From positions 1 through 35,038 of the forward strand of contig JBFMCO010000065.1 of NCBI GenBank assembly GCA_040754495.1: a stretch of 35,038 nt of DNA, given 5' to 3'. How positions within the stretch are numbered: the first letter of the stretch is position 1; each line of letters begins with the position of its first letter. Shown piece after piece: positions 8,012-28,850 of this stretch. The notes beneath the pieces are model-generated. The model saw only the letters and a program-made list of their open reading frames with translations, did no database searches and was not told the DNA's origin. Origin of the DNA: Candidatus Micrarchaeota archaeon (lineage in GTDB: Archaea > Micrarchaeota > Micrarchaeia > Anstonellales > Bilamarchaeaceae). The translations under genes and the position numbers were made by a program.

Positions 8012-8046
8012 GGGTTTCCGGTTTCCTGTTTTCGGTTTCCGGTGTT
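8012..8046. repeat. degenerate 7-bp tandem repeat (5 units, CGGTTTC-like)
   Basis: GGGTTTC CGGTTTC CTGTTTT CGGTTTC CGGTGTT read directly. Confidence 0.8.
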
Positions 8047-8092
8047 TGTTCTTTGAAAAATGAAGGACAGAACGCTGGAACAAAAACCTCAG

Positions 8093-8139
8093 GAAGTTTC
8101 GCGAGCCTTTATCCTGAGCCGTGACCGAGGAAAGGCTCA
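8093..8139. repeat. 47-bp palindromic dispersed element, copy C
   Basis: GAAGTTT-CGC-GAGCCTTTA-N15-GAGGAAAGGCTCA, same layout as copies at 26523 and 26865. Confidence 0.75.
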
Positions 8140-8730
8140 CTTGAAGACTTCGCCGCGCTCGGACTTGCGTATCTCGACGCGCCTCATCTTCGTGACCTGC
8201 TTTAGCCTGCTGAACACCCTGGAGGAGAACCTGCCGTATATCACGTCCTGGATTACCTCCTCGAAGTTCTTCTCGGCAATCCCCTTCTTGCACTCCTCGA
8301 CTATGATGTTCCGGAGGTTCCTGCGCGTGTTCTCGCTCACCCGGGCCCCGGTCACCGCGATTATCTTCAGCCGGAGGCTCTCGTTGTCCTTCGTCTTCTC
8401 GTCCACCACCTGGTGGATGAGGGACTTGCCGCGCCTTGCGAAAGTCCTGATGAAAGACGGGGCGATCTCGTGCCCGAGCAGTATCGTGGATGCGTCAGTC
8501 CCGTTGACGCCGCTGATGCGGAAGCGGAGGGTGGTGAACATCGCCATCTGCGAGGCCCCGCCCATGCCAAGCTCCAGGAGGCTCGAGCGCACCACGCGGT
8601 TGAGCAGCCTGGCGTCTTCCGAAGCGACCACTTCGCAGAGCTCCTTGCTCTCGAACATAGTCGGCGACTTGACGCTGTACCATTTCTTGGCCTTCCATTT
8701 GTCTACAGTCTTGACTTTCTTGCCAGCCAT
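8137..8730 (-). CDS. rps3ae: 30S ribosomal protein S3Ae (eS1)
   Basis: VDKWKAKKWYSVKSP...RVVRSSL...RRVEIRKSE. Start set at ATG 8730. Confidence 0.95.
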   Translation of the reverse strand: MAGKKVKTVDKWKAKKWYSVKSPTMFESKELCEVVASEDARLLNRVVRSSLLELGMGGASQMAMFTTLRFRISGVNGTDASTILLGHEIAPSFIRTFARRGKSLIHQVVDEKTKDNESLRLKIIAVTGARVSENTRRNLRNIIVEECKKGIAEKNFEEVIQDVIYGRFSSRVFSRLKQVTKMRRVEIRKSERGEVFK

Positions 8731-8751
8731 AAAAATCACGGATTTTTATAC

Positions 8752-8771
8752 TTGACCGGCTCGCCGGTCAA
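8752..8771. promoter_or_regulatory. intergenic hairpin between rps15 and rps3ae
   Basis: TTGACCGGC-TC-GCCGGTCAA is a perfect inverted repeat; function not known. Confidence 0.4.
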
Positions 8772-9840: not shown

Positions 9841-10686
9841 ATGAAAAAGGACGAGCGCAAGGCATCCGAGGAAGGCAGGATGGGCCCTGCAGCCGGGGCT
9901 TCCGCCTCCGGGGCAGAGCAGCCCAAAACCCCAAACCCGAAACCAGAAACACCCGCAGCTCCGAAACCTGCAGCCGGAAACCCGGAACAGGCTGCTATCG
10001 ACCGGAAAACCGATGCCGGCCAGCAGGAGATGGCCGCGCTCCTGAAGGAAACCGAGAGCGCCATGTTCGCCATAAGGTTCTATCCGGTGGCGGTGAACGA
10101 GCAGGCGAAGGACGAGGCGGTCGCGAAGCTGGAGAGCGTATACTCCAAGGGAAGCGAGACCGTGAGGCAGATGCTCCTTTACATGCTCCATGAGAGCCTC
10201 GCGACGAGCGTGGACCTCAAGGTGATGCACACCCTTGATTATTTCAAGGTGAAGACGCCGGGCGTGGAGCCATCGCAACAGAGGATGAGCGTCTACCGGG
10301 CCATATTCAACTACAACACCTCGCTGGAAGGCCTAATTGAACTCATAAAGCTCCTTGGGCGCCTGAGGGGGAGCGACGACGCTGCCAAGCTCCTCACGTA
10401 CCATTTCTCCCACCTGTGCTCCTACGAGAACGAGGCCAGCCACGTGCTCAGGGCGGCCGTGCTCGGCGCGCTCGGCGAATCGGAATCGAGATACGCGCTT
10501 CTTGCGCTCTTGGATTACGCCCACTACACCGACAACGAGCGCACCTTCAACCGCGTCGTGAGCGCGCTCGTGGAGTGGGAGGGCAAGATAGGCTCGCTGA
10601 AGATGCCGGAGAAGGAGAAGGCGAAAATCAGGGAGATGCTGAAGGAGATAATAACGAGCGAATTCAGGGGGAGCCATTACGGGTAG
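9841..10686 (+). CDS. hypothetical protein with low-complexity N-terminus and HEAT-like helical repeats
   Basis: Start set at ATG 9841 because the upstream part of the ORF is antisense to rdgB. VLRAAVLGALGESESRYALLALLDYA is HEAT-like. Confidence 0.75.
   Translation: MKKDERKASEEGRMGPAAGASASGAEQPKTPNPKPETPAAPKPAAGNPEQAAIDRKTDAGQQEMAALLKETESAMFAIRFYPVAVNEQAKDEAVAKLESVYSKGSETVRQMLLYMLHESLATSVDLKVMHTLDYFKVKTPGVEPSQQRMSVYRAIFNYNTSLEGLIELIKLLGRLRGSDDAAKLLTYHFSHLCSYENEASHVLRAAVLGALGESESRYALLALLDYAHYTDNERTFNRVVSALVEWEGKIGSLKMPEKEKAKIREMLKEIITSEFRGSHYG
9926..9991. repeat. 7-bp tandem repeats inside a CDS (PKTPNPKPET...)
   Basis: AAACCCC AAACCCG AAACCAG AAACACC, then AAACCTG CAGCCGG AAACCCG GAACAGG. 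Confidence 0.7.
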
Positions 10687-10687
10687 C

Positions 10688-10729
10688 CGGTTTCCGGCAG
10701 CCGGTTCCCGATTTCGGGTTTTGCGTTTT
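10688..10729. repeat. degenerate 7-bp tandem repeat (6 units) between convergent genes
   Basis: CGGTTTC CGGCAGC CGGTTCC CGATTTC GGGTTTT GCGTTTT. Confidence 0.7.
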
Positions 10730-10743
10730 TGGCTCCACTTGAT

Positions 10744-12861: not shown

Positions 12862-13665
12862 ATGATTGGACAAACACCCTGCTTCGCCGGCCTGCCGGCA
12901 TTGGCCGCCTCGAAAAAATTCGGCAGGTATGGGCCTGAAGCCGAAAAGGCTTCCAGGACAGGCCAGTATAAACGCGAGGAATTCAACGATATAATGGACC
13001 TGTGGCAGAGGATGTGGGATTCGCAAAAAGCCACCAGGGACCTGGAAAAGATGTACGAGGAGGCCGCAAAGGGGGTGGAGGCCCTCGGGATGGCCGGGAT
13101 CGAATTCGGAGAGTTTGCCGCCAGGGTAGCGGAATTAAGCATACTGCTCCCCGAGGATGAGGGGGTGGGGCTGATAAAGCATAACAACTTCAGGGCAGGA
13201 ATCGCCCTCAGCGCCGTCATAAATTGCAGTTCCCGCGAGCTTTTCGATATAGACCTTGATGGGGTGGGGATAGCACTTGCCGAACTCGGTTACCGGAATG
13301 TAAAGGAAGTCACTTTCCGCAGGGGCGCGCCCCTTTATGGCACTGCAAGCGATTTCAATTTAGGGAACTGTATGGAGAAAGGCTCGATAGACTACCATGG
13401 GGGCATTTTTGGGCGGGTAGGCAGGAAGATGAGCGGCGGGGTGATAAGGATTCACGGGGACGCCATAAGCTCCCCGGTCGGAAATCTGCCAATCGGGGCG
13501 AAGATGACCGGCGGCGAGATCTGGGTATTTGGCAATGCGGATAATCTGGTCGGCCCGGGCATGAGGGGCGGTGAGATACACTTCGAGGGCGATTTCGGCG
13601 GGATTTCGGAAACCATGATTTCCGGAAGGATATACCATAAGGGAAGGCTGATTGTCGATAAGTGA
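12862..13665 (+). CDS. GXGXG beta-helix (FwdC/GltB-C-like) domain protein, paralog family B copy 1
   Basis: GNCMEKGSIDYHG..VGRKMSGGVIRIHG..IGAKMTGGEIWVFG..VGPGMRGGEIHFEG repeats, and N-terminal ALAASKKFGRY. Confidence 0.85.
   Translation: MIGQTPCFAGLPALAASKKFGRYGPEAEKASRTGQYKREEFNDIMDLWQRMWDSQKATRDLEKMYEEAAKGVEALGMAGIEFGEFAARVAELSILLPEDEGVGLIKHNNFRAGIALSAVINCSSRELFDIDLDGVGIALAELGYRNVKEVTFRRGAPLYGTASDFNLGNCMEKGSIDYHGGIFGRVGRKMSGGVIRIHGDAISSPVGNLPIGAKMTGGEIWVFGNADNLVGPGMRGGEIHFEGDFGGISETMISGRIYHKGRLIVDK
12902..12930 (+). repeat. 29-bp exact direct repeat, copy 1
   Basis: TGGCCGCCTCGAAAAAATTCGGCAGGTAT, identical to 13711-13739. Confidence 0.9.
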
Positions 13666-14117
13666 CTGGCATGATGAGACATACGCACCGGACATCCGGA
13701 TGGGCTGCGCTGGCCGCCTCGAAAAAATTCGGCAGGTATAAAGGCGAGAGCGGGGGCCCCGTAAGGGAGGCCCGAAAGGACGAGGTCCTGGACCGGCTCA
13801 TTGCGCTTTGGGATGTCCGGGAGAAGGAACTGGCCGGGCGGATTCAGCAAATCAGGCATTCAGCGGACGATGTGGAGCGGCTGAGCGTTGCCCTCGGCGC
13901 CCTTGAGGGCGAGCCGGATTTCTATGACCGGGCAGGGAGGCTGCTGAGAGCCCTCGTTATCCACGGCAAGGATAGCGAATTCAGGATTCATACGAAACGT
14001 TTGAGAGATGTGGAAGGCGTCTGGAAACTAAGAAACCGCATCATAAACGGGGAGTTCTGGAAGGAAGAGGCGCACTATAGCATCGACCGCAATCCATGGA
14101 GAGGTATAACTGGCTAG
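13662..14117 (+). CDS. family B copy 2, lacking the beta-helix domain
   Basis: ALAASKKFGRY N-terminus and GTGA overlap with the upstream stop. Ends where the GXGXG repeats would start. Start may be 13671 or 13674. Confidence 0.7.
   Translation: MTGMMRHTHRTSGWAALAASKKFGRYKGESGGPVREARKDEVLDRLIALWDVREKELAGRIQQIRHSADDVERLSVALGALEGEPDFYDRAGRLLRALVIHGKDSEFRIHTKRLRDVEGVWKLRNRIINGEFWKEEAHYSIDRNPWRGITG
13711..13739 (+). repeat. 29-bp exact direct repeat, copy 2
   Basis: Identical to 12902-12930. Confidence 0.9.
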
Positions 14118-17509: not shown

Positions 17510-18304
17510 ATGTCCGTGATATTGGCTGCCAGCACGATTCGTGGCGCAGGGCACGCCCTTGCTCTTTCCGCTGCAAAACGCTTCGGGAGGTATACGCCTG
17601 AGGCTGAAGGGAGGCTCAGGGAGCTGCAGAAAGCGGGGACCCCCGTGCTGGATGCCCTCCATGCCGCATGGCGGGAATGCGCGGGCAGGGACGGAACAGG
17701 CGACGAGAGGTATTTCTGGACGACTGAGGCCATCCGGTACGCCTTCTATTCCCCGGCGGACGTCGAGGCATTCAGCATTGCCATGAGCGGATTCCCGGAC
17801 GGGTCCGGATTCCCGGCCATGGCCGGCTATTTCCTCAGCGCGCTCGTGAACGGCGGCCCGCCCGGCGCATACACGCTCCATGCGACCTCGGCGGGCAGGA
17901 TGATAGACCACCTCGGCTACTGGAACTCGAAGGACCTTCTGGTGAAAGGGCCGGCGGGCCTTTCGGCCGGGGAGGAGATGCTTGCCGGGACGCTGACGAT
18001 AGAAGGTAACGCCGAGCACTACCTCGGCCTCGATGCCGGGGGCGGGATGATTCATGTCGAAGGTAGCGCAGGGCACTACGCAGGCAGGAAGCTGAAGGGC
18101 GCGGAAATCCTCATCGAGGGCGATGCCGGGAACGGCCTTGGCGCGTTCATGTCGAGGGGGAGGATAACCGTCCTCGGCAGGGCAGGGAAGGAGGCCGGAA
18201 GGTGCATGAGGGGCGGCAGGATAGACCTCGAAGGCGATTACGAAAGCATGAGCAGGCACGTTATTGGCGGGGAGATATACCACCGGGGAGCCAGGATAAG
18301 ATAG
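17510..18304 (+). CDS. GXGXG beta-helix (FwdC/GltB-C-like) domain protein, family B copy 3
   Basis: ALSAAKRFGRY N-terminus, then AGEEMLAGTLTIEG, AGRKLKGAEILIEG, LGAFMSRGRITVLG and AGRCMRGGRIDLEG repeats. Confidence 0.85.
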   Translation: MSVILAASTIRGAGHALALSAAKRFGRYTPEAEGRLRELQKAGTPVLDALHAAWRECAGRDGTGDERYFWTTEAIRYAFYSPADVEAFSIAMSGFPDGSGFPAMAGYFLSALVNGGPPGAYTLHATSAGRMIDHLGYWNSKDLLVKGPAGLSAGEEMLAGTLTIEGNAEHYLGLDAGGGMIHVEGSAGHYAGRKLKGAEILIEGDAGNGLGAFMSRGRITVLGRAGKEAGRCMRGGRIDLEGDYESMSRHVIGGEIYHRGARIR

Positions 18305-20973: not shown

Positions 20974-21828
20974 TCAGTAGTTGACTTCGCTCAGCACCGT
21001 GTTGAACGCGGTGTACGGGTATGCGCCCGGTATCAGGACGACATACTCGTTGTCGTTCTCGAAGAGCTCTATGCCCTGGCCGTACTGCGAGTTCAGCGAG
21101 GAGACGGCCCCGCTTATGTCAGCGAGGCTCACCTTGCTCTTCGGGATTATGAGGAAGTTCGACGGGGTCCCGCTCACGCCGTAGGTCTGGCCCTGCGCCA
21201 TGTCCGCGTTTATCTCGGACTTGGGCTCCTCGGAATCGTAGCACGTGCCGAACGTCGCGGCGTTCAGGCCGAGGTCGGATGCGTAGCCCTTGAACGTGTC
21301 GCCTGCGTCATCCAGGCCGGACCACGACGACTGGCTTTCGAAGAGCTTGTCGTGCATCTCCCAGAACTTGCCCTGGGCATCCGCGCAGCTTGCGGCGATG
21401 GCCGCGGGCATCGCGTTCGGGTGGAACGAAAGCGGGAAGTCCCTGAAATAGACCTTGACCTTGCCGGAGTCCACGTAGTTCGTCTTCACCTGGGCCAGCG
21501 CATCGCCGTAGAGCTTGGAGCAGAACGGGCACTGGAAGTCGGAGAACTCCACGAACGTGACTGGAGCGGACGAGCTTCCGAGGACCGGATGGTTCCCGGC
21601 AGCCACCTGGAGCTTCTGCAGCTGCGTCGGCTGGGTCGGCTGTGTCGGCTGCGTGGGCTGCGTCGGTTGCGCCGGCGCGGCCGGCTGCGTCGCATTCGTT
21701 GCCGGGCCCTTCACTATGCCGAATCCCCCGGTCAGGACCGAGAGCAGCAACATAGCGCCAAGCCCTACGATGATTATCCCGTAGAACATGTCCTTGCTGA
21801 CAGTTATTGTGCTTTCCTTCTCCGCCAA
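20974..21828 (-). CDS. DsbA family thioredoxin-fold protein, membrane anchored
   Basis: APVTFVEFSDFQCPFC, VYFRDFPL, GKFWEMHDKLF and GVSGTP. TTG start with GAGGTGA upstream. Confidence 0.92.
   Translation of the reverse strand: MAEKESTITVSKDMFYGIIIVGLGAMLLLSVLTGGFGIVKGPATNATQPAAPAQPTQPTQPTQPTQPTQLQKLQVAAGNHPVLGSSSAPVTFVEFSDFQCPFCSKLYGDALAQVKTNYVDSGKVKVYFRDFPLSFHPNAMPAAIAASCADAQGKFWEMHDKLFESQSSWSGLDDAGDTFKGYASDLGLNAATFGTCYDSEEPKSEINADMAQGQTYGVSGTPSNFLIIPKSKVSLADISGAVSSLNSQYGQGIELFENDNEYVVLIPGAYPYTAFNTVLSEVNY
21622..21675 (-). repeat. 9-bp tandem repeat encoding a (PTQ)n linker
   Basis: CTGCGTCGG-like units x6 on the + strand, encoding PAQPTQPTQPTQPTQPTQ. Confidence 0.85.
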
Positions 21829-24962: not shown

Positions 24963-25695
24963 CGGAAAAGTCCAGCTCATAATAGACGGGAAGAGGACCG
25001 ATGGCAGGGCCATGGAAGACCTGAGGAACCTGCGCATCGAGGTAGGAGTGATATCCGAGGCCGACGGCTCTGCCTACGTGGAGTGGGGAGGCAACAAAAT
25101 CGTGTGCGGCGTCTACGGCCCGAGGGAATGCATCCCGAGGCACGAGGCGAGCCCGTATCATTCGCTCGTGAAATGCAGGTACATGATGTCTCCATTCGCA
25201 TCGCTCGAGGAGCACAGCAGGAGCGGCCCGTCAAGGAGGAGCACGGAGCTCTCCAAGGTCATACGCGAAGTCTTCGAGAACCTGATAATAGCAGAGAGGT
25301 TCCCGAACACGCAGATAGACATTTACATAGACGTCCTCCAGGCGGACGGCGGAACCAGGACCGCTTCGGTGACCGCAGCGGCGGTCGCGCTCGCGAACGC
25401 CGGCATCCCCATGAAGGACATGGTGGCCGCGGTGGCCGTGGGAAAGGCCGGGAACATGCTTGCCCTCGACCTGAACAAGCTCGAGGACAACTTCGGCCAG
25501 TCCGACATGCCAATCGCCATCTCGCACAGGGACGGCAAGCTGCTCCTGCTGCAGATGGACGGCCTGCTCACCAGGGAGGAGGTCGTGACCATGCTCGACA
25601 TGGCGGCCAGGGGCTGCGAGAAAGTGAACGCGATGCAGTCCGATGCCCTCAAGAGGTTCTACGAGAAGGGCGAGGAGGAAGAGGTTAAGTGGTGA
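24949..25695 (+). CDS. rrp41: exosome complex exonuclease Rrp41
   Basis: GKRTDGRAMEDLR, ADGSAYVEWG, VYGPRE, RRSTELSK and QADGGTR active site. Start set at ATG 24949. Confidence 0.97.
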   Translation: MADSSGKVQLIIDGKRTDGRAMEDLRNLRIEVGVISEADGSAYVEWGGNKIVCGVYGPRECIPRHEASPYHSLVKCRYMMSPFASLEEHSRSGPSRRSTELSKVIREVFENLIIAERFPNTQIDIYIDVLQADGGTRTASVTAAAVALANAGIPMKDMVAAVAVGKAGNMLALDLNKLEDNFGQSDMPIAISHRDGKLLLLQMDGLLTREEVVTMLDMAARGCEKVNAMQSDALKRFYEKGEEEEVKW

Positions 25696-25699
25696 TGAC

Positions 25700-26497
25700 A
25701 TGGGCGAAGAAGTAAAAGACATAATCATGTCCCACATCAGGAGGGACATCATGGGGAACACCCTCGGCAAGGGGGTACGGTTCGATGGCAGGAAATTCGA
25801 CGAATTCCGGCCGATATCCGTGCAGAGAAGCGTGATAAAGACGGCCGAAGGCTCGGCCATCGCGAAGATCGGCGACACGCAGGTGCTGGTCGCAACCAAG
25901 TTCGACATCGTGAAGCCATTCGCGGACAGGCCGACCGAGGGCGTCCTTGTGACGAACTCCGAGCTGCTGCCTCTCGCATCGCCTTCCTTCGAGCCTGGCC
26001 CGCCGAACGAGAACTCCATTGAAGTGGCGAGGGTGGTCGACAGGGCGGTCCGCAGCGCCGAATGCGTAGACCTCAACTCCTTCTTCGTTGAAAATGAGAA
26101 GGTCCTCGGCCTCTACCTCGACATATACGTGCTAGACCATGCCGGCAACTACACGGATGCAGCGACCATCGCGGCCACCGCCGCGCTCCTGGACACGAAG
26201 ATGCCCAAGGTCGAAGGCGGCAAGATTATCCGCGGGGAGTACACCGGCATGCTGAACCCGAGCAAGCTGCCCGTAACGACCACGATGATAAAGGTCGGCG
26301 AGCACTGGCTGACAGACCCCTCGCGCGATGAGGAGCGCGTGCTCGAGACCGTCCTCACGATTGGCACTACCGAGGAGCACGTGTGCGCCATGCAGAAGGG
26401 AAGGGGCTCCCTCACAAGGGACGAGCTCGTGTCGGCGATGGAGATAGCTTTTAAAAGAGGGGACGACATAAGAAAGATACTGAAAGGGGTAGAGTGA
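25700..26497 (+). CDS. rrp42: exosome complex protein Rrp42
   Basis: RFDGRKFDEFRPI, AEGSAIAKIGDTQV and FEPGPPNENSIEVARVVDR. Start set at ATG 25700. Confidence 0.96.
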   Translation: MGEEVKDIIMSHIRRDIMGNTLGKGVRFDGRKFDEFRPISVQRSVIKTAEGSAIAKIGDTQVLVATKFDIVKPFADRPTEGVLVTNSELLPLASPSFEPGPPNENSIEVARVVDRAVRSAECVDLNSFFVENEKVLGLYLDIYVLDHAGNYTDAATIAATAALLDTKMPKVEGGKIIRGEYTGMLNPSKLPVTTTMIKVGEHWLTDPSRDEERVLETVLTIGTTEEHVCAMQKGRGSLTRDELVSAMEIAFKRGDDIRKILKGVE

Positions 26498-26502
26498 TTC
26501 AG

Positions 26503-26526
26503 CTTCCTGCGGTGTGCCGCAGGAAG
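26503..26526 (+). promoter_or_regulatory. GC-rich hairpin between rrp42 and rpl37ae
   Basis: CTTCCTGCGG-TGTG-CCGCAGGAAG, a perfect 10-bp stem. Confidence 0.5.
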
Positions 26527-26569
26527 TTTGATGAAACTTTATCTGGCGTGCAATAGGAGGAAAGTTTCA
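26523..26569 (+). repeat. 47-bp palindromic dispersed element, copy A (overlaps rpl37ae start)
   Basis: GAAGTTT-GAT-GAAACTTTA-N15-GAGGAAAGTTTCA(TG). Confidence 0.8.
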
Positions 26570-26805
26570 TGCAGACTGCAAAATTCGGCGCTTCAAACAG
26601 GAAGCTGGTCGACAAGGCCATAAAATCCAAGAAGGCCAGGTACGAGTGCCCCAAATGCCACAAGCTCAAGGTCACGCGCAAGGCAACGGCGCTCTGGGCA
26701 TGCAAGGCGTGCGACGCCAGGTTCGCGGGCGCAGCCTACTCGTTGCGGAGCGAGGCGGGCGAGATATCCGCGCGCGTAATCAGCGAGTACACCAAGTCGT
26801 CTTGA
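26569..26805 (+). CDS. rpl37ae: 50S ribosomal protein L37Ae (eL43)
   Basis: KFGASNRK, YECPKC...WACKAC..FAGAAY, in conserved position after rrp42. Confidence 0.93.
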   Translation: MQTAKFGASNRKLVDKAIKSKKARYECPKCHKLKVTRKATALWACKACDARFAGAAYSLRSEAGEISARVISEYTKSS

Positions 26806-26864
26806 AATCGTCTGTACGGACGTAGGCCGGATGACGTTTGATGGCCGGGCGGGGTTCATCGGAA

Positions 26865-26911
26865 GAAGTTTGATGAACCTTTAACCGGAGTTTATGCGGA
26901 GGAAAGGTTCA
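26865..26911 (+). repeat. 47-bp palindromic dispersed element, copy B (overlaps rpoP start)
   Basis: GAAGTTT-GAT-GAACCTTTA-N15-GAGGAAAGGTTCA(TG). Confidence 0.8.
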
Positions 26912-27042
26912 TGGGAGATTACAAGGACCCTAAGACCGGCGTATCGGTCGCAGTAGGGGAGAAATTCGCTTTCCCCACCACCGGGGCCAAGATACTGCTC
27001 AAGGCCAGGCCGCCGGTTGCCAAGGAAGTAAGCACGGATTAG
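26911..27042 (+). CDS. rpoP: DNA-directed RNA polymerase subunit P (Rpo12), cysteine-free variant; absent from the ORF track
   Basis: Hand translation MGDYKDPKTGVSVAVGEKFAFPTTGAKILLKARPPVAKEVSTD. KILLKARPP matches the Rpo12 C-terminal motif and the gene sits in the rpoP slot between rpl37ae and Brix. Confidence 0.85.
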   Translation: MGDYKDPKTGVSVAVGEKFAFPTTGAKILLKARPPVAKEVSTD

Positions 27043-27916: not shown

Positions 27917-28850
27917 ACTGTTCCTGGAGTTCCTCAAGAGGCATGATGGCAAAAAGATAGCCATCGCCACCCACAACAAGGCCGACCCCGACGCCATCTC
28001 TTCCGCATTCGCGCTGAGCAAAGCCATCCCCGGCAGCGTCATCTGTACCGACGAGGAGCCCAGCGAAGGCGCGAGGCTGCTGATAAAGCGGCTCGGCATC
28101 GAGACCAGGAAGCTTACGGGGCTCCCCAGGGACGGGTTCGAGGGCCTCGTAGTGGTCGACACGAGCGCTTACACGCTTATTCCTGCAGCCCGCGGCTGGA
28201 GAATCCTGTGCCTCATCGACCACCACCGCGGGGAAGGGCGCGACATGTCGGGCGAGCTGGAGATGATAGAGCCCGAGTCGCCGTCCGCGGCAGAGATAGT
28301 GGCCTCCATCCTGCCCGCGATAGACAAGGACTCGGCCTTCGCGCTTTGCGCAGGCATAATAGCCGACGGGGCACGGTTCAAGTCCGCCCGGGCGCGGACC
28401 TTCGAGGTTCTCGCATCCCTCATGAAGATTTCCGGGGCCAGTTACCCGGAGCTGCTATCCATTGCCGAGCCTGAGCCGAGGCCCGAGGCCAAAATCGCGA
28501 TGCTGAGCGCCATGAAAAGGCTGGAGTTCGTGTATGCCGCAGGATACCTGGTGGCGACGACCGAGGTCGGGAGCAACGAGAGCGACGCGGCTTCCCTGAT
28601 ATCCGAGGCCGCGGACGTGGCCTTCGTGGCCAAGTGGAAGGATGCCGAGAAGGAGACGCGCATTTCCGCAAGGGCGCGAAAGAGCGTGGCGGTTCCGCTG
28701 AACAAGGTGCTGGCAGAGGTGGGCAAAAGCCTCGGCGGGGCAGGCGGGGGCCACCCCAAGGCCGCGGGAGCCGCACTCAAGGCTCATACGGACGAAGCGC
28801 TCAAGAGATGCGTGGAGACATTCATCAGCATGGCCGAAGGCCAGGCATAA
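27897..28850 (+). CDS. DHH/DHHA1 family phosphoesterase (NrnA-like)
   Basis: THNKADPDAISS, VVVDT, LIDHH and GGGHPKAAG. Confidence 0.92.
   Translation: MPKEASELFLEFLKRHDGKKIAIATHNKADPDAISSAFALSKAIPGSVICTDEEPSEGARLLIKRLGIETRKLTGLPRDGFEGLVVVDTSAYTLIPAARGWRILCLIDHHRGEGRDMSGELEMIEPESPSAAEIVASILPAIDKDSAFALCAGIIADGARFKSARARTFEVLASLMKISGASYPELLSIAEPEPRPEAKIAMLSAMKRLEFVYAAGYLVATTEVGSNESDAASLISEAADVAFVAKWKDAEKETRISARARKSVAVPLNKVLAEVGKSLGGAGGGHPKAAGAALKAHTDEALKRCVETFISMAEGQA

Follow-up and report, generated by a model that had tools for sequence, protein, structure and literature searches.

What delimits one gene from the next in a tightly packed archaeal genome? The genomes of DPANN archaea are tiny and dense, and how their genes are started, ended, and separated is poorly understood. 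The window that we analyzed, by which we mean the whole 35,038-nt stretch of DNA, is contig 65 of a 1.63-Mb genome (59.5% GC, 80% complete), and it raises this question in a concrete form. A 47-nt element with complementary arms ends on the first base of rpl37ae, a second copy ends on the first base of an RpoP-like open reading frame (ORF), and a third lies against the stop codon of rps3ae. We asked what this element is and what it might be doing at the edges of genes.

Three copies of a hairpin element in the window

A pattern search found the 47-nt consensus as an exact match at three sites, all on the plus strand and here called copies A, B, and C (Table 1). There was no further match in the window with up to three mismatches allowed, and 100 shuffles gave an expectation of zero. 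A repeat finder grouped the same three sites as one repeat family. The initial annotation had described three copies with identical spacing and with variable dinucleotides that stay complementary. Both descriptions are exact, and the pairing is in fact longer than it had claimed, with element positions 10/11–18 pairing with 39–46/47 in a stem of 8–9 bp. It had also placed a GGAGG motif just inside the stem, which is incorrect: the motif occupies positions 34–38, in the 3′ part of the loop and adjoining the stem, and G37 and G38, which may pair with C21 and C22, are the only bases of the motif that could pair. As for its statement that the right arm of copies A and B includes the ATG, the final element base is indeed the A of the ATG, in rpl37ae for copy A and in the 43-aa RpoP-like ORF for copy B. 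The predicted RNA fold of copy B has an energy of −16.4 kcal/mol (z −4.7).

Table 1. Coordinates of the element copies, adjoining genes, and other repeats in the window
Feature	Position	Strand	Remarks
Copy A, forward	26523–26569	+	61 bits (covariance model)
Copy A, tag GAAGTTT	26523–26529	+
Copy A, 5′ arm	26532–26540	+
Copy A, GGAGG	26556–26560	+
Copy A, 3′ arm	26561–26569	+
Copy B, forward	26865–26911	+	68.6 bits (covariance model)
Copy B, 5′ arm	26874–26882	+
Copy B, GGAGG	26898–26902	+
Copy B, 3′ arm	26903–26911	+
Copy C, reversed relative to neighbor gene	8093–8139	+	arms 8103–8110 and 8131–8138; bases 8137–8139 (TCA) form the minus-strand TGA stop of rps3ae
rrp42-like RNase PH gene	25643–26497	+	ends 25 nt before copy A; conserved TTTTAAAA near its 3′ end, at about 26450
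Local hairpin, 8–11 bp, CTTCCTGCGG/CCGCAGGAAG	26505–26524	+	fold prediction only; first bases of the copy A tag paired with its 5′ flank
rpl37ae, 78 aa	26569–26805	+	PF01780, 2.1e-19; starts at the final base of copy A
43-aa cysteine-free ORF	26911–27042	+	in the exosome superoperon, at the rpoP position; conserved throughout the genus
nac, 111 aa	7643–7978	−	next minus-strand gene after rps3ae; 115 nt past the copy C tag
rps3ae, 200 aa	8137–8739	−	PF01015, 1.7e-45; stop codon overlaps the hairpin end of copy C
T-rich heptad-like repeats, (GGTTTCC/GGTTTCG)n	8012–8055; 10681–10731
Seven tandem 9-nt units, GCTGCGTCG-like	21612–21701
Diverged direct repeats, 67–69 nt, 70–74% identity	12862–12930 and 13671–13739; 13531–13597 and 18176–18242		probably starts or ends of paralogous genes

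All three copies had been said to flank genes of the translation or transcription machinery. Copy C precedes no gene and instead overlaps the stop codon of rps3ae, a position that is kept in 8 further species, and the ORF called rpoP has no Pfam match. That ORF also has no cysteines, and RpoP is ordinarily a zinc ribbon. We infer that it is RpoP from synteny and from our interpretation of its C-terminal motif, and it is possibly a zinc-free RpoP. It carries the genus-conserved motif MGxYKD...GAKxLLKxRPP.

A repeat family of Micrarchaeota

The initial annotation had proposed a covariance-model scan of the genome and of other Micrarchaeota. A fuzzy pattern found 13 copies in the genome, and a covariance model built from those 13 raised the number to 20 and had matches in 12 of the 18 congeners first searched, with 1–36 copies each; among congeners, copy number ranges from 0 to 36. 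Further copies and conservation in relatives, both anticipated by the annotation, were thus found. The same search gave no match in any of the 12 other genera that it covered within the order. In a species-representative collection, a 22-mer taken from the element was present in 48 stretches, from about 20 MAGs whose titles read Micrarchaeota, Micrarchaeia, Bilamarchaeum, or plain "archaeon," with the exception of two oddly named bins. The repeat family is Micrarchaeota-specific. No Rfam family matches it and literature searches found no published description, in agreement with the annotation, which had called it undescribed. The tag, GAAGTTT, is usually preceded by CTCAG or CGGCT, and there are two subfamilies in which the type of flank is linked with the type of loop.

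Pairing is kept while the arms change

In the alignment of the first 13 copies, 93% of cells were paired and five pairs had changed on both sides, and none of 500 shuffles and no slid register came near the observed pairing. RNAalifold agrees with the stem. The covariation that the annotation had seen in three copies extends to larger sets: 66 distinct copies contain 25 arm sequences, each with its complement, and overall there are at least 25 arm types with about 98% of stem pairs Watson-Crick. Forward copies contain no G·T pair at all (0/320 stem pairs), and the other classes contain 1–3 G·T or A·C pairs, so that both kinds of mismatch are too rare to tell the transcribed strand.

Compensated changes are also found between orthologous copies. 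At rps3ae the arms are GAGCC/GGCTC in this genome and GAAAA/TTTTC or GAAAC/GTTTC in other species, and orthologous copies at rpl37ae, at rpoP, and at a Pyr_redox_2 gene differ in the same manner. Orthologous copies persist at one locus across species whose coding DNA has only ~75% nucleotide identity, and their tag is fully conserved, reversed copies included. Judged by these comparisons, the stem is under clear structural selection. Because the tag is equally conserved in reversed and forward orthologues and G·U pairs are missing, these data suggest that part of the constraint is on the DNA, and the conservation of the tag in reversed orthologues argues for a function at the DNA level that is independent of the strand.

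The hairpin end contacts the boundaries of genes

We classified 123 distinct copies across the genome and its relatives, with hand corrections. About 30 are forward copies that end at a start codon, at an offset of −1 to +2, and 11 are forward copies that end at tRNA +1. Among the reversed copies, about 17 abut a convergent ORF's stop codon or overlap it with their final bases (11 at rps3ae orthologues and at least 6 at other genes), at least 10 lie 0–3 nt past a tRNA 3′ end, and 3 lie at the 3′ end of RNase P RNA. Seven copies lie within tRNA introns, all in relatives and none in the window, 13 are followed by another unit in an array, and the remaining copies carry no context class. In every class the neighbor is contacted by the hairpin end and the GAAGTTT tag points away. 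The start codon falls at −1 to +2 and tRNA +1 at −1 to +3 of the element end, every junction that we read is pyrimidine-purine, and the hairpin end falls exactly on the 5′ splice site of three tRNAs.

The genes that start at a copy include rpl37ae, the RpoP-like ORF, rpoN, rpoA1, rpoE, nusA, and ftsY, and also a HerA-like ATPase, HMG-CoA reductase, and a Pyr_redox_2 enzyme. Operon-junction copies are found at rrp42–rpl37ae–rpoP, before rpoA1 (Rpb1 domain 1), and before a NusA-like KH protein. The list of downstream genes that the annotation had asked for therefore holds rpl37ae, rpoN, rpoA1, rpoE, and nusA, as it would lead one to expect, but it also holds the two metabolic enzymes and tRNAs. 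Its tie to the starts of translation and transcription genes does not survive as a general rule: about 40% of classified copies are reversed, facing a convergent gene, tRNA, or RNase P RNA from its 3′ side, and others lie in arrays, in tRNA introns, or before metabolic genes.

At the hairpin end of copies in several species there are conserved sequences, GTCAGACGCTGTTGAC and GAGTGGGAGGNGGGA (G000 contig 5 at ~28235–28250 and contig 64 at ~8728–8770; relatives L031, L063, L090, L098, L108, L112, and L115). The one of these searched against Rfam, downstream of the contig 64 copy, had no match.

Translation and transcription signals

The GGAGG motif is kept in 28/30 copies at protein starts compared with about 10/41 copies at tRNAs, at stop codons, and in introns, counts that include orthologues and so overstate independence; the loop bases that neighbor the motif vary. 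Since GGAGG is kept at protein starts and in only about a quarter of the other copies, it would have a Shine-Dalgarno role there, and its bias to protein-linked copies points to a transcribed leader for protein genes. One subset of the genome's genes has a GGAGG peak at −13 to −11, in which the element's GGAGG, at −13, takes its place. In a separate subset of genes there is a TTTAW peak at −29/−28 from the first start codon, and the element's TTTA, at −31, is inside this peak. Across the whole genome, about 16% of confident gene starts have TTTAW at −32 to −26, so leaderless mRNAs should be frequent.

The annotation had likened the TTTA at −31 to other promoters. Its position does fall within the genome's leaderless peak, but as a TATA box it is weak by the genome's own matrix: just 7% of ordinary promoters share its C at +5, and TTTG takes the place of TTTA in some copies. 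Several tRNA-linked copies have a canonical TATA box upstream, and the upstream TATA profile, with an enrichment of about two-fold at −31 to −22 from the tag, is not decisive. In 173 ordinary leaderless promoters we found no arm complementarity beyond control, and we rejected the idea that such complementarity is a general property of promoters here. No transcript-derived contigs are on record for rpl37ae.

The DNA that lies past the tag of reversed copies is rich in A, and so rich in T as the convergent gene reads it; runs of four occur in 12/33 reversed copies vs 6/40 forward copies. This lends weak support to the idea that reversed copies may be read through into a T-tract. The T-rich heptad-like repeats of Table 1 recur after many tRNA genes and between genes, also in congeners; they may be the lineage's terminators or another repeat family.

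Arrays, introns, and empty sites

In congener G008, arrays of 2–5 units with a 72-nt period lie beside at least five tRNA 3′ ends, and G008 and G011 also have successive units spaced about 52 nt apart with only CTCAG between them. In G011, complete and incomplete units facing either way occupy 500 nt of non-coding DNA, G011 and G006 have tail-to-tail inverted pairs and mixed clusters, and G038 has tandem and nested copies before nac. The tRNA introns of relatives that bear the element are those of Leu(TAA), Gly(TCC), and Pro(CGG). In two species the whole tRNA-Gly(TCC) intron is a single reversed unit together with 9 nt of its usual flank, and the intron copy of tRNA-Leu(TAA), also in two species, has an intron-less counterpart in this genome.

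Beside some copies lie duplicated pieces of a tRNA 3′ exon and of the 3′ end of RNase P RNA, and these duplications are best explained as recombination between copies. An RNase P RNA gene on G000 contig 61 (L007, 155–351 and 336–643) scores 71 bits, below the Rfam cut-off. Its 3′ end bears a miniature version of the element that lacks the loop, and a 16-nt duplicate of the same 3′ end adjoins a full copy 134 nt away.

Element-free congeners have a short spacer with a Shine-Dalgarno, 4–18 nt, before rpl37ae and the RpoP-like ORF, and 16–38 nt between rps3ae and nac. In L147 (G038) and L146 (G047) the rps3ae-nac spacer is filled by other hairpin module families, for example AAAGGAAC-N4-GTTCCTTT three times and CCAATTGGAGC-ATT-GCTCCAATGG.

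With respect to mobility, the inverted repeat is internal to the element and one end is a non-palindromic tag. We saw no target-site duplications at the junctions inspected, and neither terminal inverted repeats nor a parent element, in a parent search that covered the Y1 transposase domain (Y1_Tnp). Y1_Tnp is absent from this genome, at its 80% completeness, and is present in 9/40 congeners, none of which are the genomes with 36, 22, 20, and 14 copies. We rejected the Y1 transposase as the mobilizing enzyme, as over the 40 congeners it has no correlation to copy number.

Several known classes were considered and set aside. As a C/D-box sRNA, the element has a C-box-like TGATGA at positions 7–12 that is missing in many copies, and it has no D box; the defining motifs of H/ACA RNA and of integron attC sites are absent. 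The 25-nt inter-unit segment of the 72-nt arrays is itself repeated, with no unique spacers of the kind a CRISPR array would have. Leader-trailer pairing around the contig 9 tRNA was rejected because the stems of the flanking copies are unrelated and only their tags are complementary, and a bulge-helix-bulge (BHB) within the element was rejected because the predicted inner-helix bulges are level, not staggered. A structured cis-regulatory RNA leader class would account for the covariation, but forward copies lack G·U pairs, the contexts are mixed, and Rfam has no match.

A proposed REP-like module at gene boundaries and its rivals

We favor, tentatively and at somewhat less than an even chance, the reading that the element is a REP-like, self-propagating tag-plus-hairpin module that has been co-opted as a leader or trailer at gene boundaries. 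The module would consist of the fixed 5′ tag followed by a hairpin whose stem is free to vary as long as it pairs, and copies would have multiplied in intergenic spacers, been retained there, and been co-transcribed with their neighbors. A forward copy would be the final 47 nt before a gene, and at a protein gene it would supply a loop Shine-Dalgarno (GGAGG at −13) and an 8-nt spacer to the AUG. A reversed copy would be the first 47 nt past a stop codon, tRNA, or RNase P RNA, forming a 3′ hairpin with a T-rich first arm, and a few copies would constitute tRNA introns. Spread would occur through a DNA-level process that recognizes tag plus hairpin, and the hairpin would act on RNA ends or on translation. 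Against this reading, no enzyme, transposase or otherwise, is tied to the family, 1–36 copies per genome is low for REPs, the near-absence of G·U is unusual for a stem selected only in RNA, target-site duplications were not seen at the junctions inspected, and the strand-independent conservation of the tag argues for a DNA-level function that the model does not name.

The main rival places the function on the DNA, as a promoter cassette in which CTTTAWCC (positions 15–22) would serve as TATA box and the 5′ arm as BRE region, with transcription beginning at positions 46–48 and giving leaderless mRNAs and nearly leaderless tRNAs; the repeats would then be portable strong promoters. The fixed spacing to the start codon or tRNA +1, the pyrimidine-purine junctions, the prevalence of leaderless transcription in the genome with the element's TTTA inside the TTTAW peak, neighbors that are mostly highly expressed genes, and promoter-carrying intergenic repeats known in an archaeal virus (PMC8707807) all speak for it. 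We nevertheless consider it unlikely, since some 40% of classified copies point into 3′ ends and are conserved there, arrays of 2–5 units point into tRNA 3′ ends, the TATA box is weak against the genome's own consensus while canonical ones lie further upstream of several tRNA-linked copies, and the conservation of GGAGG in protein-linked copies requires a leader. Ordinary leaderless promoters, moreover, are without the inverted repeat, and a promoter would give no reason for the arm covariation. The dyad operator of the initial annotation is a poor fit, as the arms are free to vary provided that pairing is kept. Its other suggestion was an RNA stem that hides the Shine-Dalgarno and AUG. The covariation, a working-looking Shine-Dalgarno, and forward copies that end at the ATG agree with this; the Shine-Dalgarno, however, is not hidden by the stem. 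A dedicated 5′-leader riboregulator could instead sequester the spacer between Shine-Dalgarno and AUG together with the first base of the AUG, and release both when GAAGUUU pairs with the 5′ arm instead; in this way it would adjust how ribosomal and RNA polymerase genes are translated. Here the stem covariation, the loop Shine-Dalgarno with the AUG at the stem foot, and the copies at the operon junctions named above are joined by the complementarity, read from the sequence, of GAAGTTT (1–7) to AAACTTT (12–18) in the commonest subfamily. Yet the element also occurs before tRNAs, reversed after genes, and in introns, the tag is invariant while its proposed partner arm varies, G·U pairs are lacking, the gene set includes metabolic enzymes, and there is no Rfam match, all of which makes such a regulator very improbable.

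A purely selfish miniature mobile element, whose abutment to genes is only what insertion and streamlining tolerate in a compact genome, would explain the range of 0 to 36 copies among congeners, the arrays, nested copies, and partial modules, the recombination products with fragments of neighboring genes, the empty sites in congeners, and the same spacers filled by other hairpin module families. The MITE-like alternative of the annotation gains much support from the variable copy number, arrays, nested copies, and empty sites and from the intron copies, but placement is far from random and the inspected junctions are free of target-site duplications. Retention of orthologous copies with compensated stems and a conserved tag over ~75% identical coding DNA, a Shine-Dalgarno kept selectively where a protein gene follows, and the missing terminal inverted repeats, target duplications, and parent element also weigh against a purely selfish origin, and we regard it as improbable. 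We give a similarly low probability to the idea that the hairpin end marks RNA ends and that the element is tied to RNA processing, as a punctuation signal or through spread by an RNA intermediate. It derives from the single fact that the hairpin-end boundary coincides with start and stop codons, tRNA +1, tRNA and RNase P RNA 3′ ends, and three 5′ splice sites. As punctuation, the hairpin foot would be the cleavage site of an endonuclease, such as the Micrarchaeota splicing endonuclease with its broad specificity, and cleavage there would free leaderless mRNAs, both ends of tRNAs, and the 3′ end of RNase P RNA from long transcripts; with an RNA intermediate, the module would be joined to processed RNA ends and copied back into DNA.

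What these observations describe is a lineage-wide module, under clear structural selection, at dozens of gene boundaries that include conserved operon junctions and tRNA and RNase P RNA ends. If the module is REP-like, the class extends to archaea in a form fused to translation start signals, and a link arises between extragenic repeats and the way tRNA introns originate. Should the module prove to be a promoter or processing signal, it would open a route into the gene expression of organisms that are difficult to grow. The element is also an aid to annotation, as its end predicts start codons and RNA gene ends within 0–3 nt.

Comparison with known systems

REP/BIME elements (REPINs) are bacterial, are mobilized by RAYT (Y1) transposases, and have a GTAG or CGTC tag. 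The element shares with them a short conserved tag beside a hairpin, pairing that is kept through compensated changes, and an extragenic, multicopy distribution as single units, tail-to-tail inverted pairs, and mosaic clusters. REPs often lie directly after stop codons or between cistrons and affect mRNA stability, termination, and translation, as summarized in PMC3733652, PMC2817692, and PMC12306157. The element differs in its tag, which is GAAGTTT, not GTAG/CGTC, in a loop of about 20 nt that contains a Shine-Dalgarno, in its 1–36 copies per genome and archaeal host, in having no RAYT (Y1_Tnp is absent here and bears no relation to copy number), and in forward copies that are welded to start codons and tRNA 5′ ends.

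Fujishima et al. 2010 reportedly described transposing BHB tRNA introns of Thermoproteales and the multi-intron tRNAs of ARMAN-2. Going by the summary in PMC3239211, such introns resemble the present ones in that related enzyme-spliced introns are found in different tRNAs while orthologous tRNAs elsewhere are intron-less. They differ in that only 7/123 copies of the element are intronic and most lie at gene boundaries outside tRNAs.

The intergenic repeats of halovirus HF2 were identified as promoters by reporter assay, according to the abstract of PMC8707807. They too are archaeal intergenic cassettes, of 29–58 bp, just upstream of genes and conserved in position among relatives, but the same abstract reports no covarying hairpin, and the element described here is known from its sequence alone and has many copies that face 3′ ends. 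Hairpin elements of sponge mitochondria, as summarized in PMC2800124, belong to another domain of life and have other sequences, but like the present family they are small hairpin families that have invaded the intergenic regions of a very compact genome.
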